Of a stretch of DNA of 64,000 nucleotides, positions 20,658-52,157 are shown piece after piece. The translations under genes were made by a program, and so were the position numbers. Each line of letters opens with the position of its first letter. Position 1 is the stretch's first letter. Location: IMG/VR virus record IMGVR_UViG_3300037840_000188, positions 32,001 through 96,000 of that record; one strand, 5' to 3'. The stretch is from a virus. The notes beneath the pieces were generated by a model. That model saw only the letters and a program-made list of their open reading frames with translations. It was not told where the DNA came from and did no database searches.

Positions 20658-21368
20658 TTATGCGGCAGTATTGATAGTGGCGGGCGATGAAGGATTCGAA
20701 CCCTCTGCCTCGGAGATAGAAGCTCCGCGCTCTGGTCCAGATGAGCTAATCGCCCGTAAATCAAGCAACCCGTGATCAAATTCCCAATGGCAATTACGGC
20801 AGAGCTGAACTACATTCTTCCTCGCGTTGGCGGTTGCAACAGTAGCGTCATCGGGAAATTTAGAGAGCGGGATTATGTGCGCCAATTCAACGTGACGAGA
20901 ATATCCACAGGCAGCACATGGCTTACTCAATATGTCGACATGTAGATGTCGCGCCATTTCACGGATCTGGCTATCCTTCCACGAAGGATGTTTCACTGTA
21001 TCTCTCGTACGGAACTCTCCAAGGGTCATGGACTGTCGTTCCACGAATTTAAAATGTCCAGCGCAGCGAATGCAGGCGCTTGAATAATAATCCATCCTGC
21101 GTCCGCATGCGCAAATCTTTTTATTCTCTTTCCGCCATTTACGGACACGCTCAACATTGCGCGCTTTTGCATTTTCCCTCCTTTCCGTTTTTATTGCCTC
21201 CTGACAACCATGGCAATGCAATGTGCGCGTGCTCAATACGATCCCGCATCGCCCACAATGACCTTCTGGCTTTCTCTTGGGGAATGCTTTGTCGTTATAG
21301 ATTGCGGCACATGAGCGACCGCAAAATTTTGGGTTCAGGGTTTTCTTCGAGCAATTCAAACAGTCCAT
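20658..21368 (-). CDS. HNH endonuclease with zinc-finger N-terminus
   Basis: CAACG...ELAHIIP...NVVQLCRNCHWEFD; 3' end overlaps tRNA-Arg. Confidence 0.8.
   Translation of the reverse strand: MDCLNCSKKTLNPKFCGRSCAAIYNDKAFPKRKPEGHCGRCGIVLSTRTLHCHGCQEAIKTERRENAKARNVERVRKWRKENKKICACGRRMDYYSSACIRCAGHFKFVERQSMTLGEFRTRDTVKHPSWKDSQIREMARHLHVDILSKPCAACGYSRHVELAHIIPLSKFPDDATVATANARKNVVQLCRNCHWEFDHGLLDLRAISSSGPERGASISEAEGSNPSSPATINTAA
20678..20755 (-). tRNA. tRNA-Arg(TCT)
   Basis: Cloverleaf; loop CTTCTAT; CCA. Confidence 0.9.
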
Positions 21369-24400: not shown

Positions 24401-24670
24401 TCAAAGTTCCGGTAGTTTGGTCTTTTCGATGGACAGAAAGTAAACGTGGTCTGCGTCGAAAGTGTAGTAGAGCGCAGCATCAACCGTGTGGCCGCAAATG
24501 AACCATACCTGAGAGCCTTCCAATGGGCAACCCGCCTCCGGGTCTCGTGACAGGATTGTCTCAGCGCCTTCCATGAACTCGTCTGCCCTGCGAACGATTG
24601 GCTCGATGTAGTCCATCTCAAGCTCAAACCGGTGGTCACGGATGATGGTCCTGATTTTATCCGTGGGCAC
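24401..24670 (-). CDS. putative RelE/ParE-like toxin
   Basis: ILSRDPEAG, ALYYTFDADHVYFLSI; coupled to antitoxin. Confidence 0.55.
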   Translation of the reverse strand: MPTDKIRTIIRDHRFELEMDYIEPIVRRADEFMEGAETILSRDPEAGCPLEGSQVWFICGHTVDAALYYTFDADHVYFLSIEKTKLPEL

Positions 24671-25241
24671 GGAGATGTGTTTCTGCGAGCGACTGGAGTC
24701 GTAGTCCGCGCATTCGTTCGTGATCGGTCGGTGGCCTGCGGCTCACCAACGCCGTGCTGTATGGAATCGTTTCTTTCAGGTGTGCGGCCTTCCACCCCAG
24801 AAAGACATGCGACTGGTCGCTGATCTCGACGGCGCTCAACTTCCAGAATTTCTCTACAGTCTGGCGGATCAGATTAACGTCGGCACCTGAGAACTTTGAT
24901 AGATCGGGAGAGCGGAGCGCAATCGGTTTTTTTTGCGTGCGCCCGTAGTACGGCACTTCCTGCCAGGCAAAATCGCCTCTCTTTATCATGGCTTCCGTGA
25001 TCACCTTCAGGCGGCGCGGAGCTGGCCCCTGCGGAAGCTTGAAGTACTCCTGCCCGGTGATCGGCTCTCCATGCGTCAGAAACGCAGAGAAGTCGGCGTG
25101 AAACAAAAGCTTGTTGAGTTTTATTGCTCCGAACTTCGGATCGGCCTGGCACCACTCCGCGATCAGCAGAATCAACTCCTGGAGCTTCTCGTCGTTCGGG
25201 CGGTGTCGGTGTCGTGGTGTCGGTGTCGTGGTGGGCGGCAT
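24657..25241 (-). CDS. Panacea (DUF4065/SocA-like) antitoxin
   Basis: KLNKLLFHADF, ITGQEYFKLPQGP, SDQSH...W. Confidence 0.85.
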   Translation of the reverse strand: MPPTTTPTPRHRHRPNDEKLQELILLIAEWCQADPKFGAIKLNKLLFHADFSAFLTHGEPITGQEYFKLPQGPAPRRLKVITEAMIKRGDFAWQEVPYYGRTQKKPIALRSPDLSKFSGADVNLIRQTVEKFWKLSAVEISDQSHVFLGWKAAHLKETIPYSTALVSRRPPTDHERMRGLRLQSLAETHLRAHG

Positions 25242-25554: not shown

Positions 25555-26261
25555 CATCGCGGGCTTCGAAGCTTCCCAAAGAACTCTTGGCACGTATCGA
25601 AGCCGTCACGGCCAAACGCGCCAGATTTGTCTTGGACGGCATTGTGAAGAACGGCAAACTCACCACGGAGCAGATCAATCAGGCAGGCTATGATCATCCG
25701 CCTCGGGCCGTGCAGGACGCCAAGGACCTCGGGTTCAGGATCAAACGCACCACCGTAAAGCACACGAACGGACGATCTATCGCCGCCTATGAATTCGATG
25801 AAGGCGAACTGGACCCAAGCAAAGCAGGACGCCGCGCTATTCCGAAAAAAGAAAGAGACGAAATCATTCATGCCGCTGGTGACAAGTGCCAGATTTGCAA
25901 TGCCGTACACAATTTACAGGTAGATCACCGCATCCCCTACGAGGTGGCCGGTGAAGCCTCGGCAGCCGAAGCGCATCCATTTCAGGTTCTTTGTGGTTCC
26001 TGTAACCGCAAAAAGTCCTGGGCCTGCGAACACTGCCAAAACCGCCTTGAAATAGTTGACCCAAAAATTTGCCGTTCCTGCTATTGGGCAGGTGCGACAG
26101 CCTACACTCATATCGCCATGCAGGAGCAGCGTCGCGCCGATGTTGTGTGGACTGCGGGTGAAGTGCGAGACTTTGAGCGGTTGCATTACACCGCAAAGAG
26201 CCACGATAGAAGCGTGCCGGATGAAATTAAGGTGATCGTGAAAAAGGTGTTAGGCAAATAG
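25551..26261 (+). CDS. HNH endonuclease, putative Type II restriction enzyme
   Basis: CQICN...LQVDHRIPY...LCGSCNRKK; flanked by C protein and MTase. Confidence 0.75.
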
Positions 26262-27200
26262 AACTGACTGATGCTGCACCGTCGCGAAATCCCGAAGTGA
26301 AAGAGACGCTGGCTTTTCGCTGATGGGGAGCACATGGGACACATACAGAGACTCGACCGTAACGTCGTCACGGCCATTGAGAGTCGCCTGGCTGGAACGC
26401 CCGACATCTAGGAGAATTCGCCGGGCTACTGTCTCGGGAAGCGGCTCGCCATAATCGGTTTCCCCGCAGGAGCCGTCATAGCTGAGGATGAACGGAATTC
26501 GCCGTTCGTTCAGTATTGACAACCCTTTGATCATCTGATCACGGCTGACACCGGCGATGTATCGCCGGTCACGACCGCCGCTTGTTCCCTGATAGGGAGG
26601 GTCCAGATAGTAAAAATCTCCCTCTTGCGCCCACGAAAACAAGGTTGAAAAATCAGCGTGCATCGCCTGGCATTTTCCAGCGAGTAGTCGATGCGCCGCG
26701 AATAGTTCCGCCTTCATCGTTTTAGGCTTCGTGCCGGTGCGCCGTTTGTCGGGTGACTGATTGAAGTCTCCAGCAGGGTTGAAGCGAACAGCATTCTTGA
26801 CGCACCGCGCAAGCAGGTACAGCAATTTTGCGGGATGTCGATCCGCGTTAAACTCTGATCGGATTTCGTAGTATGCGTCGATGGGTTTAGAGCGCTCCCT
26901 TTGCCAGAGCGCCTCATACTGCCGCGCGACTGGACCCGGATCGTCAATAATCGACTGCCACAGGCGAATTAGCGGTTCGAGTGCATCTCCCACGATGTAA
27001 GAGCGAAATGTCTTGTGATAAGCCGCCGCCAGCGTAACAGCAGAGGAACCGGCGAATGGCTCAATCAGCCGGAAGTATTGGTTCGGAGGGACGTGGCTGA
27101 GAATCGCTGTTGCTAGTCTTCGTTTACTTCCCTGATACGGAATGGGGTGAGGAACGGAAAACCGCGATCTGTCCATCGGATACTGGCTCCTATGATACAC
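26250..27200 (-). CDS. Dam-family DNA adenine methyltransferase
   Basis: PYQGSKR, IEPFAGS, YLDPPY. Confidence 0.92.
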   Translation of the reverse strand: MYHRSQYPMDRSRFSVPHPIPYQGSKRRLATAILSHVPPNQYFRLIEPFAGSSAVTLAAAYHKTFRSYIVGDALEPLIRLWQSIIDDPGPVARQYEALWQRERSKPIDAYYEIRSEFNADRHPAKLLYLLARCVKNAVRFNPAGDFNQSPDKRRTGTKPKTMKAELFAAHRLLAGKCQAMHADFSTLFSWAQEGDFYYLDPPYQGTSGGRDRRYIAGVSRDQMIKGLSILNERRIPFILSYDGSCGETDYGEPLPETVARRILLDVGRSSQATLNGRDDVTVESLYVSHVLPISEKPASLSLRDFATVQHQSVLFA

Positions 27201-27260: not shown

Positions 27261-28256
27261 TCAGGCGACCGCCGCTTCCGAATTGTCTGTTGGCGCGGGC
27301 GGTACCTTTCCGGTCAACTGATCGAACATCAGGCGCTTGCCAACGATCCCCTTGACAGCCAAATCGAACCGCTCCGCGTCCGTCAGGTGACGGTGATTGA
27401 ACCGATAGGCTTGCTCATCGAGATAGCGGAAAAGGTGGAACGGCTCAACCGAAACATACGTGCCGTGCAGCCCGCGCTTGAGCAGGCTCCAGAAGTTCTC
27501 GCACCCGTTCGTGTGGACAGCACCGCGAACATATTCAACCGCATGATCTACGACCTGGTGGCGAAACTCATCCAGCCCTTCATAAGACTTCAGCGAGTCG
27601 GTGAACAGCGCGGAGCCAGCCGCCACGTGTTCGCGCACTTCAGCCTGAAGCGCCTTCTTCTTCCGGTTCGATACGACCTTCGTGCGGATCTGACTTGGCT
27701 TCCCATCCTTGCCGCGCTCCAGAATGCCCATGACCATAGTTTTGTCTTTGCCACCCGTGCCGGTGATCTTCACGGCTCGCACATCCTTGTGCATATTACG
27801 TGCCTTCTGCCCGATAAAAGTCTCATCTGCTTCAACTTCTCCGGTCAGTTTGTCGGGCGCTTCCATACCGAATGCGACGCGGATTCTGTGATCCAAAAAC
27901 CACGCAGTCTTTTGAGTGACGTTCAGGGCGCGGGCGATCTCGCAGCTTGAGATGCCGTTTTTGCAGTTGCTCACCATCCAGGTAGCCGTCAGCCACTTGT
28001 CCAGCCCGAGCGGGGAGTCTTCGTAAATCGTTCCGGTCTTCAGGGAGAACTGACGCTGGGAGTGCTTGTTACGGCACTGCCAGCGGCTCTGGTTCGCCAG
28101 GAATATCACATCGGCACAGCCGCAGGTCGGACACGTGACGCCGTTGGGCCAGCGCCGCGCTACTACGTACTCCCGGCAGTTGTCGGGATTTGCGAAGTAA
28201 ACGATGGCTTCCTGTAGGCTGGTTGGCTCTTGTTCCATGCCTTTATTATCAGGCAT
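27261..28256 (-). CDS. IS1595-family transposase
   Basis: Zn ribbon CPTCG, VEADETFIG, LFTD, HTNGCENFWSLLKR, YLDEQAYRFN. Confidence 0.95.
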   Translation of the reverse strand: MPDNKGMEQEPTSLQEAIVYFANPDNCREYVVARRWPNGVTCPTCGCADVIFLANQSRWQCRNKHSQRQFSLKTGTIYEDSPLGLDKWLTATWMVSNCKNGISSCEIARALNVTQKTAWFLDHRIRVAFGMEAPDKLTGEVEADETFIGQKARNMHKDVRAVKITGTGGKDKTMVMGILERGKDGKPSQIRTKVVSNRKKKALQAEVREHVAAGSALFTDSLKSYEGLDEFRHQVVDHAVEYVRGAVHTNGCENFWSLLKRGLHGTYVSVEPFHLFRYLDEQAYRFNHRHLTDAERFDLAVKGIVGKRLMFDQLTGKVPPAPTDNSEAAVA

Positions 28257-28333: not shown

Positions 28334-28410
28334 TGGAGCCTCCGGCCTCGATTTGAACGGGCATCCTGCTGTTTACAAAACAGCCGCTCTACCATTGGAG
28401 CTACGGAGGC
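28334..28410 (-). tRNA. tRNA-Thr(TGT)
   Basis: Loop TTTGTAA; CCA. Confidence 0.88.
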
Positions 28411-28411
28411 A

Positions 28412-28486
28412 TGGAGCGGAATCCGGGAGTTCAACCCGGCTGGCTTGTTTGGAAGACAAGTGCCTGAAGCGCTCGGCCAATCCCGC
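28412..28486 (-). tRNA. tRNA-Gly(TCC)
   Basis: Loop CTTCCAA, U73. Confidence 0.85.
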
Positions 28487-28551
28487 GTATTTTTGACATC
28501 ACCAAATTTTCAAACATCAATCGCGCCGATAGTTCTGTCGGTCGCGCGAAA

Positions 28552-28630
28552 TGGTCGGGCATCTCAGATTCGAACTGAGGATCTCTCGGTCCCAAGCCGA
28601 GCGGATTAAACCAGACTTTCCCAATGCCCG
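28552..28630 (-). tRNA. tRNA-Pro(TGG)
   Basis: Loop CTTGGGA, C1-G72. Confidence 0.88.
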
Positions 28631-28671: not shown

Positions 28672-28702
28672 CTGGAAACTTTTAAAGTGCTGGAATCCAG
28701 GT

Positions 28703-28795
28703 CTACGGATCGTTCCTTGGCGTGCGCACACCCGCAAATGCGGTGGCGGGCTGCATCGCTTTCGGTTCTATCGCCGTATGGATTCGTCTTTGCAC
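28703..28795 (-). CDS. putative 30-aa leader peptide
   Basis: GTG...TAG between promoter and terminator: MQRRIHTAIEPKAMQPATAFAGVRTPRNDP. Confidence 0.55.
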   Translation of the reverse strand: MQRRIHTAIEPKAMQPATAFAGVRTPRNDP

Positions 28796-28804
28796 TGCAA
28801 GATC

Positions 28805-28832
28805 AGAATAGCACGAGAAGGCTAACTGTCAA
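28805..28832 (-). promoter_or_regulatory. sigma70-type promoter of the tRNA array
   Basis: TTGACA-16 nt-TATTCT with TG extension. Confidence 0.7.
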
Positions 28833-28839
28833 GTGCTTT

Positions 28840-29509
28840 TTACCAATTCCCCCGCACATAATCGCGATACGTCCACTTCTGCCCCGTGATGTGATCATTC
28901 ACCTGATCATCGCGCTCGCGAACGGTTCTGCGCTTGTCGCCGCGCATGCCGCTTCCGATCTGTTGTTTGCGGTCGGCAGCCGTAGCAGCAACCGCGCGCT
29001 CCCTCTCTGCACTCCACAGTCGCGAAGTAAGCAGAGCGAGCGCCAGTTCTTTATTCCTGAACTGCGAGCGCTCGGCTTCGGAGCGCACCATCAGTCCAGT
29101 GGGGATATGTGTTAGCTGGACGGCTGTCTCGACCTTGTTGACGTTCTGCCCGCCTGCGCCTCCTGCACGGCAAGTCTGCCAATGAAGGTCTCTGGGATTG
29201 ATCGAGAATTGAGCCTGAGTCGGCTCGGGAAGGACAGCTACCGTGATTGTGGAGGTGTGGACGCGGCCACGCTTTTCGGTAGGCGAGACACGCTGCCATC
29301 GGTGGCCGCCCGCTTCGTCAGCAAAACAAGACCGGGATCGCTCAGCCACCGCTTCTGTGACTCGTAGAACCGAAAGGCCGGGACGCTCTTCGATGACTTG
29401 AGTGTTAAAGCCCCCTCCGTATGCACCTCTTCAGGTAAATGGAGAGTTGGGTCTCGACGAGCATTTTCGCGTCTAAGCCGCCCTCTGCGGCGCGGATTTC
29501 TATGATCAT
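28840..29509 (-). CDS. RF1-like release factor homolog lacking domain 1, needing a +1 frameshift at 29404-29410
   Basis: ORF0 [11 protein letters not shown]...RRGL-stop; +1 frame [20 protein letters not shown] and [15 protein letters not shown]. Confidence 0.85.
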
Positions 29510-29543
29510 AATTTCAGTTTACTCCTCGGGTTTGCCTTCCCAT

Positions 29544-29768
29544 TCATTTCCTCATCGCCTCCGCAAGTGAAGTCCATGGCGTATCTCCGTGCCAGTACAT
29601 CTTCCCGCCCTTCGATCCTTCGCGGTCGCTTCGGCGCATTTGCGGCGCTGGGTCTTCAGATCGGTTTGCTTGATATCGATACTGGCGACTCCACAGGCGC
29701 TTACTGAACTTCTCGCTTTTCGCGGTAGTGATGCCAGTGATAGGAGTATGGCGTGTGCTGCGGGACAT
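29544..29768 (-). CDS. small basic hypothetical protein
   Basis: MSRSTRHTPITGITTAKSEK; directly upstream of the RF gene. Confidence 0.65.
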   Translation of the reverse strand: MSRSTRHTPITGITTAKSEKFSKRLWSRQYRYQANRSEDPAPQMRRSDREGSKGGKMYWHGDTPWTSLAEAMRK

Positions 29769-29785
29769 GATGATTCAATTGTAAA

Positions 29786-29862
29786 TGGCGGGGGTGACAC
29801 GGTTCGAACGTGCAGCACCTGGGTTTGGAAGCCAGTGGCAATACCTATATGCCCTCACCCCC
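29786..29862 (-). tRNA. tRNA-Trp(CCA)
   Basis: Loop TTCCAAA, G73. Confidence 0.8.
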
Positions 29863-29871
29863 CCCGCATAG

Positions 29872-29947
29872 TAGGCCCGGTGGGACTTGAACCCACAATA
29901 AACAACCGCTTTTGAGACGGCGGAGTCTGCCATTCCTCCACGGGCCT
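29872..29947 (-). tRNA. tRNA-Leu(CAA), short variable region
   Basis: Loop CTCAAAA, A73. Confidence 0.8.
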
Positions 29948-29954
29948 GGAAAAT

Positions 29955-30037
29955 TGGTGGACGTGCACGGAATCGAACCGCATTTGCCCGAAGGCGTCCG
30001 GTTTACAGCCGGGTGGAGACCATTCCCCATCACGTCC
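29955..30037 (-). tRNA. tRNA-Tyr(GTA)
   Basis: Loop CTGTAAA, variable arm, CCA. Confidence 0.88.
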
Positions 30038-30038
30038 A

Positions 30039-30114
30039 TGGCGGAGTCGGAGTGATTCGAACACTCAATTGCTTTCGCAATCACGCCTTAGCGGGGCGCT
30101 GCAATACCGTTCTG
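30039..30114 (-). pseudogene. tRNA-Ser(GCT), 5' end deleted
   Basis: Loop CCGCTAA, long variable arm; 5' acceptor strand replaced by transposase sequence. Confidence 0.85.
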
Positions 30115-30762
30115 GGGGTTACTCAGAAGACGGCGTGGTTTATGTTGAGTCGGATTCGCCTCGCAATGCAGGACGATCTCACGGGAGGAAACCTTGGCGG
30201 CGAAGTCGAAGTGGACGAAACCTACATCGGCGGCAAGGCGCGCAACATGCATGCATCGGCCCGTCTTCGTCGGCACATCGGGACGGGCGGTGAAGGCAAG
30301 ACGGTAGTTCTCGGGATTTTGGAACGCGCGAGCGGGAAGAAACCGAAGCGCATCCGCGCTACCGTCATTTCGGATCGCAAGAAAGCGACGATTCAGCCTG
30401 AGGTGGCCGGACAAGTCGAGCGCGGCTCGAAAGTCTATACTGACGACTTCGCACATACGTGGAGAATGGAAGATCGCTTTGAGCATGAGATGGTCAACCA
30501 TCTCGACAAGTACGTCTCTGGCAACTGCCATACAAATTCGCTTGAGAATTTTTGGTCCTTGCTCAAGCGGTCCGTTGGCGGAACTTACATCAGCGTGGAA
30601 CCGTTCCACCTGTTTCGTTACGTCGATGAACAGGCGTTCCGGTTTAACAACCGGCTCATGGACGACGCTACGCGCTTCGTGATTGGCATGACTCAGATCG
30701 TCGGACGCCGCTTGACGTATGCTCAGTTGACTGGGAAAGCAGAGGTTGTTCAACATGGCTGA
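30112..30762 (+). pseudogene. N-truncated IS1595 transposase
   Basis: EVDETYIGG, HTNSLENFWSLLKR; Zn ribbon missing. Confidence 0.9.
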
Positions 30763-52033: not shown

Positions 52034-52157
52034 TTCCCGGCATGTCGATGCGCGTTGATCCCTTACGGGAACGGTTGGAGTTGAACCAACTACCTAAAGC
52101 GTTGAAGGCTTTTGCTCTACCAAATGAGCTACGTGTAAGCGCGTCAGTGTCCGGGAA
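52034..52157 (-). ncRNA. Y RNA-like, non-permuted with UCA anticodon loop
   Basis: D arm, AAAGC-CTTCAAC-GCTTT, T arm; shared terminal motifs instead of acceptor/CCA. Confidence 0.75.

Follow-up and report, generated by a model that had tools for sequence, protein, structure and literature searches.

The closest described counterpart of the locus analyzed here is the autoregulatory +1 frameshift of prfB, the gene for bacterial release factor 2 (RF2), whose signal has been surveyed in 12,753 genomes—a survey that also supplies the motif definition used in this work (PMC12421855). In prfB, the ribosome pauses at a CUU codon followed by a poorly read stop, as in CUU UGA C, Shine–Dalgarno (SD) pairing takes place 3 nt upstream, and the reading frame is shifted by +1; the shift becomes less likely as the cognate release factor increases (PMC12421855). 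Among the prfB gates, TAG was not seen (0 of 8,164) and TAA made up 1.4%, being judged poorly tolerated (PMC12421855). For prfA, which encodes RF1, the same survey and a further study report no programmed frameshift (PMC12421855; PMC5009743), and an RF1/UAG counterpart of the prfB device has been called "unknown" (PMC5009743).

Further systems touch on single aspects of the locus. PrfH (RF-H), of the RtcB2–PrfH ribosome repair pair, is a class-I release factor homologue of about 200 aa that bears no domain 1, and its decoding-loop residues are unlike those of both RF1 and RF2 (PMC1586002). Mimivirus and Megavirus carry an eRF1-type release factor gene, i.e., a viral termination factor that also needs recoding of internal stops, whereby one frameshift and one readthrough occur together in one gene (Jeudy et al. 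2012, PMC3521657). Huge and stop-recoded phages encode RF1 and RF2 genes alongside tRNAs and translation genes; these release factor genes have been tied to code switching, and neither a frameshift nor an internal stop is mentioned for them (Al-Shayeb 2020, PMC7162821; Borges et al., 10.1101/2021.08.26.457843). A full-text literature search found no published description of a frameshift-gated RF1-type factor in phages.

Such a factor is predicted for the DNA described here, a stretch of 64,000 nucleotides (hereafter, the window) that corresponds to bases 32001–96000 of the IMG/VR soil phage record IMGVR_UViG_3300037840_000188 (140,995 bp, rated complete by CheckV).

Gene layout and predicted product

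The release factor gene lies on the minus strand and is divided into two overlapping reading frames with the following features.

29522–29527, minus strand: GAGGAG, an SD-like initiation element 12 nt before the ATG, read directly
29405–29509, minus strand: ORF1, 34 codons plus the TAA gate, with its ATG at 29509–29507, from the sequence and the ORF list
29414–29418, minus strand: internal GGAGG, a putative stimulator pairing with the anti-SD, followed by the spacer GGG (29413–29411), read directly
29404–29410, minus strand: shift site CTT-TAA-C (CTT 29410–29408, TAA 29407–29405, C 29404)
28840–29406, minus strand: ORF2 in the +1 frame, 188 codons plus a TAA stop, from AAC (29406–29404) to TAA (28842–28840)
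29278–29286, minus strand: tripeptide Ser-Pro-Thr within a stretch of 18 residues, from the translation and the RF1 alignment
29146–29154, minus strand: GGQ motif for peptidyl-tRNA hydrolysis, residues 119–121, from the translation and the RF1 alignment

ATG 29509 is the earliest possible start because an in-frame TAA sits 12 nt upstream. The opening strand and helix of release factor domain 2 (IEIRAAEGG...RRGL) come from ORF1, whose 3' end reads CGG AGG GGG CTT TAA C; ORF2 encodes the remainder of domain 2, domain 3 with the GGQ motif, and domain 4. A sequence-only reading had described this arrangement—SD element, ATG 29509, 34 codons, CTT-TAA-C, and a +1 continuation to GGQ—in full agreement with the sequence and the ORF list. 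Decoding TAAC as Asn, which equals a +1 slip on CTT-T, joins both frames into a protein of 222 aa (P0001). In a phmmer search against PDB sequences, its residues 2–208 align to residues 89–298 of Thermotoga maritima RF1 (2fvo) with an E value of 2.6e-42, and there is no alignment gap at the frame junction, where RRGLN of the query meets RKGWN of 2fvo. Both ORFs are conserved at the protein level, with ORF1 peptides of relatives being about 65–77% identical.

Contigs of two soil metagenome runs equal the window over 28700–29800 with zero differences or indels. As these runs may be the source of the window, the agreement argues only against a one-off assembly slip. RNA runs carrying the stretch were not listed among the sequencing runs searched.

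Domain architecture and class of the factor

Pfam recognizes two domains in the joined protein, both passing the cut-off: PCRF (PF03462, 57 bits, residues 2–90) and RF-1 (PF00472, 106 bits, residues 99–206). The RF-1 domain is full; the PCRF match covers only positions 103–194 of the 194-position profile, which bears out the earlier claim that domain 1 is absent. The assignment as RF1-like from the same reading holds as well: NCBIfam ranks prfA (194–200 bits) above prfB (143), prfH (96), and ArfB (49), all of these scores lying under the cut-offs for full-length proteins. In detail, the prfA equivalogs TIGR00019 and NF001859 reach 194 and 200 bits where the cut-offs are 423 and 400 and are matched at profile positions 107–325 only, PrfH (TIGR03072) scores 96 bits with a cut-off of 166.65, and ArfB (NF006718) scores 49 bits with a cut-off of 100, with residues 98–133 alone matched.

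An AlphaFold2 model computed from 39 family sequences has a mean pLDDT of 91. Foldseek superimposes it on ribosome-bound RF1 and mtRF1a with TM scores of 0.88–0.90 and on PrfH with 0.67; at the sequence level, the PDB match to PrfH (9mor) has an E value of 5e-19. According to the model and Foldseek, a codon-reading domain 2/4 stands in place of the basic C-terminal tail of ArfB-type proteins. The shape of the model is the extended, ribosome-bound one, from which nothing is concluded because most solved release factor structures share that state.

Bacterial RF1 is, hence, the best match in both sequence and structure. The phage factor shares with it the GGQ motif, the Gln before the tripeptide, the Thr at tripeptide position 3, and the HTST strand; it differs from RF1 by lacking domain 1 and the C-terminal helix, the alignment stopping about 25 residues before the RF1 C terminus. 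RF1-type stop-reading elements are conserved throughout the family—the Gln, a PxT-like tripeptide, H/Q-T-S-T, and the GGxDA helix tip—and GGQ is invariant across the family alignment (A1). The missing domain 1 is a likeness to PrfH, from which the phage factor differs in its RF1-like decoding loop, the score below the PrfH cut-off, the lower structural similarity, and the lack of an RtcB partner.

As tripeptide, RF1 carries Pro-x-Thr and RF2 Ser-Pro-Phe; relatives of the phage factor mostly bear PPT or PPN, and SPT arose at least four times on the tree. The SPT of the window falls outside a strict Pro-x-Thr pattern, which the PPT of most relatives matches. Tripeptide swaps by Ito et al. in 2000 reportedly suggested that Ser-x-Thr combinations broaden specificity. 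The tripeptide by itself does not determine specificity, as cautioned in PMC5776981.

Where PMC1586002 cites Mora et al., domain 1 is described as dispensable for stop recognition and hydrolysis and as needed for RF3. A factor without domain 1 would presumably bear no handle for RF3. Judging from these sequence features, the product is likely a codon-dependent release factor that acts on stop codons and independently of RF3.

Conservation of the frameshift signal

The family set comprises 81 distinct related sequences from two IMG/VR scans and one metagenome scan, the scan of metagenome contigs contributing only four of them (L065–L067 and probably L082). With the window counted, 61 of the 81 pass from frame 0 to the +1 frame at the identical codon, so that the prfB-style shift proposed from the window alone turns out to be a conserved trait. 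The gated loci other than the window are diverged (46–61% identity), and in all of them (60/60) the stop is preceded by CTT, which provides 18% of the Leu codons elsewhere in these genes. GGAGG occurs in 33 relatives, at a distance of 3 nt to CTT in 32 of the 33; 11 of the 60 gated relatives are without any SD-like element.

Several observations concern the nucleotides rather than the encoded residues. The Asp codon at the site is GAC in 30 cases and GAT in none, with GAC making up 58% elsewhere (p 7e-8), and AGG accounts for only 11% of the Arg codons elsewhere in the family genes. Gate-free relatives that encode Arg-Arg-Gly do so with CGT or CGC codons and bear no SD, which argues that the SD was selected at the nucleotide level. 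C follows the gate stop in 45 of the 61 frameshifted loci, G in 12, A in three, and T in one. Among the TAA contexts of the window phage, TAAC is the rarest, with 7 of 45 cases in a rough ORF set.

An independent sample of proteins mirrors this picture. Among the best 120 matches in a collection of 5.8 billion proteins, 43 are continuous (about 220 aa) and 77 are N-terminally short; 58 of these short proteins show a +1-frame extension that spells the cassette (GGVFD, GGVFE, GGVFS, and the like). In a scan of genome contigs with patterns specific to P0001, the best 80 matches were full-length cellular prfA genes, with no short gated member among them; eight of these 80 were sampled and have open frames of 266–393 aa. 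The notion that homologues might be continuous ORFs devoid of the motif does not describe the family, since most homologues retain it. At the same time, the 43 continuous proteins and eight family loci without a gate indicate that the gate is dispensable. Taken at the level of sequence conservation, the +1 frameshift is very probably real.

Identity of the gate stop codon

The gate stop in the 61 frameshifted DNA loci is TGA in 45, TAG in 15, and TAA in a single one—the window. The 58 cassettes from the best 120 protein matches add 39 TGA, 19 TAG, and no TAA. TGA-gated relatives surround the window in a maximum-likelihood tree. Its closest database relatives (P0003–P0005) are 75–78% identical, and the closest one with a readable cassette, P0005 (75%), presumably carries CTT-TGA-G, as deduced from its +1-frame extension GGLFE. 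The idea that UAA had been chosen in order to sense both host release factors is not upheld by these numbers. More probably, the TAA of the window marks a rare, transient state between TGA and TAG, because these two differ at two positions and TAA is the only stop codon that links them by single steps.

Stop identity is also poorly structured across the family. It takes at least 12 Fitch steps on the tree versus a mean of 13.7 with shuffled labels, many nodes being weakly supported. No covariation was found between tripeptide and stop, PPT and PPN both occurring with TGA and with TAG; S-first tripeptides occur with one TGA, three TAG, and one TAA, which represent only four independent origins. 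Among the alignment columns, none remains associated with stop identity after correction (best nontrivial p 1e-4 over 576 tests, uncorrected for phylogeny). Genes flanking TGA-gated and TAG-gated loci are similar in their use of TGA and TAG (45/25% versus 40/28%) and have equal GC content.

Strict prfB-type, self-specific autoregulation is, thus, not supported by the sequence comparison, as the choice of stop goes with neither the tripeptide nor the stop usage of the phages. An RF1-type factor cannot autoregulate on UGA, the one stop that is not read by RF1 and yet the gate of most relatives. With TGA, TAG, and—in the window—TAA all in use, the gate appears to be independent of the codon specificity of the factor itself.

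Other gates, gate origin, and gate loss

Frameshifting is not the only way in which the frame is interrupted. Four loci nested among the frameshifted ones are interrupted in frame at codon 35 as well (by TGA in L231, L248, and L301; by TAG in L249). In an AT-rich clade of its own, in-frame TGA occurs at codons 41 and 48/49 (L015, L016, L019, L287, L295, and L304); one member of this clade, L017, bears at codon 49 a second frameshift site, CTT-TAG-C. In several of the loci with in-frame stops, neighboring ORFs end in TGA with short open extensions beyond; extensions past TGA are short in L019, L301, and L016, and some are long in L231, L248, L249, and L287. A suppressor tRNA was not found in the 10-kb flanks of the relatives with in-frame stops. 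The recurrence of in-frame stops at or near the codon of the frameshift speaks for an early stop gate being under selection.

The origin of the device can be traced to some extent. Basal gate-free relatives read GGT TTT GAG (Gly-Phe-Glu) at the site, and adding one C to it gives the gated form (GGT CTT TGA G). The gate, hence, probably goes back to the insertion of one base, for which slippage compensated, with the SD being acquired later. Gates were lost several times through 1-nt deletions, for example in P0032. This continuous protein with an SPT tripeptide reads RRVFS at the position of the gate, as GGAGG-GT-CTT-TAG-C would when translated in the +1 frame; its two frames look as though the loss of 1 nt had joined them. 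Gates that occur at two positions, work in two ways, and have been lost repeatedly recall a regulator that is useful yet dispensable, as is the case for prfB.

Comparison with prfB and viral release factors

The phage signal has the slippery CTTT, the SD-like element (GGAGG or AGGGGG) at 3 nt, and the C after the stop in common with prfB. Both sites are early and follow a short first ORF (34 codons in the phage, 25 in prfB), both are lost in some lineages, and in both TAA is rare (1.4% of prfB gates, 1/61 in the phage family). The differences lie in the gene and in the gate: the phage gene is of RF1 type rather than RF2 type, its carrier is a phage, and the absence of an SD from 11 of the 60 gated relatives is a further departure. 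The phage site is located in domain 2, whereas the prfB site is located in domain 1, which suggests that the phage device arose independently. Also, the phage family uses TGA, TAG, or TAA, and prfB never uses TAG; this free choice indicates that self-specific autoregulation is not the general logic of the family. Taken together, and as far as sequences tell, the phage device is a prfB-like signal in another gene family, at another position, and with free stop choice.

Mimivirus, the nearest viral precedent, shares with the phage family a viral termination factor that depends on recoding. Its factor, however, has the eukaryotic/archaeal eRF1 fold and belongs to a eukaryotic virus, its gene combines frameshift and readthrough where members of the phage family have either one kind of gate or the other, and its recoding was shown experimentally, whereas that of the phage genes is predicted. 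The huge and stop-recoded phages resemble the window phage in carrying a release factor gene among tRNA and translation genes and differ from it in that their factors have been tied to code switching, the window phage using the standard code.

Genomic context

The window phage uses the standard code, as TGA ends about 55% of its ORFs and a suppressor tRNA is lacking. In a rough set of 164 ORFs, stop usage is 55% TGA, 27% TAA, and 17% TAG. All 23 tRNA genes of the phage fall inside the window, and the release factor gene is flanked by two groups of them.

28334–28630, minus strand: tRNA-Pro, tRNA-Gly, and tRNA-Thr, directly downstream of the release factor gene, from ARAGORN and Rfam
29786–30037, minus strand: tRNA-Tyr, tRNA-Leu, and tRNA-Trp, upstream of the release factor gene, from ARAGORN

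Suppressor tRNAs, a tmRNA, and tRNAs reading CUU are all absent from the phage. A further tRNA-like Rfam match (52071–52134, minus strand; 51.8 bits, model positions 5–66) lies distant from the main clusters and is not called by ARAGORN. Association with tRNA genes extends to the family: such genes are found within about 5 kb at 39 of 80 related loci, three or more at 31, with up to 34. A second release factor gene was not found in the phage, nor was RtcB (PF01139) in the 140,995-bp record, control genomes being positive.

Two IS1595/ISXO2-type transposase genes with 54% protein identity lie in inverted orientation at 27261–28256 (minus strand) and 30013–30762 (plus strand). They bracket tRNA-Thr/Gly/Pro, the release factor gene, an ORF of 74 aa, and tRNA-Trp/Leu/Tyr. 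The right-hand copy bears no zinc-ribbon N terminus, and its start overlaps tRNA-Tyr. Possibly, the release factor and tRNA genes were moved as part of an ancient composite element. The 74-aa ORF (29544–29768, minus strand) is located between tRNA-Trp and the release factor gene and has no Pfam match. Between the stop of the release factor gene and tRNA-Pro, a sigma-70-like promoter with an upstream TG can be read (TTGACA-16-TATTCT, 28832–28805, minus strand). A protein with a SocA/Panacea antitoxin domain (24657–25241, minus strand) adjoins the tRNA array, with an HNH endonuclease (20658–21368) and a Dam-type methylase (26250–27200) encoded nearby.

Proposed mechanism and alternative explanations

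Since the window holds every element of the prfB signal, we infer the same mechanics. With tRNA-Leu bound to CUU in its P site, a ribosome arriving there would face UAA-C in the A site, while GGAGG, 3 nt upstream, would pair with the anti-SD of the 16S rRNA. If the stop is not captured fast, tRNA-Leu would re-pair from CUU to UUU, and AAC would be decoded next as Asn. The stop would thereby serve as a gate: quick termination would yield a dead-end peptide of 34 aa, and slow termination would yield the full factor, whose output should climb as the termination capacity of the infected cell drops. Since both RF1 and RF2 recognize UAA, production of the 222-aa factor should vary inversely with the total stop-decoding capacity. 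A plausible reason for gating is that unregulated or broadened release factor activity is harmful: overexpression of RF2 lowers fitness, that of RF1 less so (PMC12421855), and RF2 mutants of broadened specificity are costly without the frameshift gate (PMC7530605). On the basis of sequence and by analogy with prfB, we consider it reasonably probable that the gene encodes a minimal RF1-type phage factor that is made in larger amounts when stop codons are decoded slowly. We give even odds that the gate senses termination capacity instead of attenuating at a fixed level. A role as sensor and backup factor is plausible, and two kinds of gate being kept at two positions would fit it.

The strongest competing account, which we hold to be possible with clearly lower probability than the proposed mechanism, is a fixed-ratio attenuator or "savior indel", i.e., a tolerated 1-nt insertion in GGT-TTT-GAG that leaves expression low and constant, with no sensing. 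The derivation of the gated form from the gate-free sequence by one added C and the repeated losses by 1-nt deletion, as in P0032 with its RRVFS, are what such an account would expect. So is the stop identity, for which the tree shows next to no structure and no correlate was found, as if any weak stop would do. In E. coli contexts, the leakiness of stop codons follows the order TGA > TAG >> TAA, and the frequencies of the gate stops in the family parallel this order. However, SD and post-stop base are under nucleotide-level selection, and independent gates at codons 35 and 41/49, by frameshift as well as by in-frame stop, argue that the stop itself was selected. Moreover, stop-dependent +1 sites are inherently sensitive to release factor occupancy, as shown for prfB (PMC12421855). 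That the interruption reflects a pseudogene or an assembly error in an ordinary phage release factor gene is scarcely credible. One extra base does divide the frames, and gene callers give only the downstream ORF of 169 aa (P0002); but the shift, its codon, the CTT, the SD spacing, and the weak stop context recur in 60 other loci at 46–61% identity, both ORFs are conserved as proteins, and the contigs of two runs are identical base for base. By this comparison of sequences, the signal is neither an error nor a pseudogene.

Two further accounts turn on the activity of the factor. A PrfH- or ArfB-like rescue factor for ribosomes damaged or stalled by an anticodon nuclease or a ribotoxin, as part of a tRNA counter-defense island, would explain the missing domain 1, the position within a cluster of 23 tRNA genes beside HNH endonucleases and the gene with the SocA/Panacea antitoxin domain, and the tRNA arrays near about half of the relatives. 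We deem it improbable, as the scores for PrfH (96 versus 166.65 bits) and ArfB (49 versus 100) are far under the cut-offs, the phage bears no RtcB, the RF1 stop-reading elements are conserved, and the structure is nearer to RF1 than to PrfH. It is a little less unlikely, yet still doubtful, that the SPT factor has a relaxed or omnipotent stop recognition, is toxic if overproduced, and closes an autoregulatory loop on any stop codon. The SPT loop of the window is a hybrid of the RF2 and RF1 tripeptides, and RF2 mutants evolved to read UAG were reported to terminate at UGG (PMC7530605). If true, such an omnipotent factor would provide one-factor, RF3-independent termination and would uncouple late translation from host RF1 and RF2.

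Implications

The window itself adds the UAA gate, the only one seen in the family, and the hybrid SPT loop. The wider meaning lies in the family. Frameshift mechanics and self-specific feedback, which are usually conflated in prfB, would come apart in these phages. The family, hence, might serve as a natural series of cassettes for probing what such a gate senses. It also points to a widespread, minimal release factor of two modules in large phages, encoded near tRNA arrays, which bears on how phages may take over or buffer the translation of their hosts.
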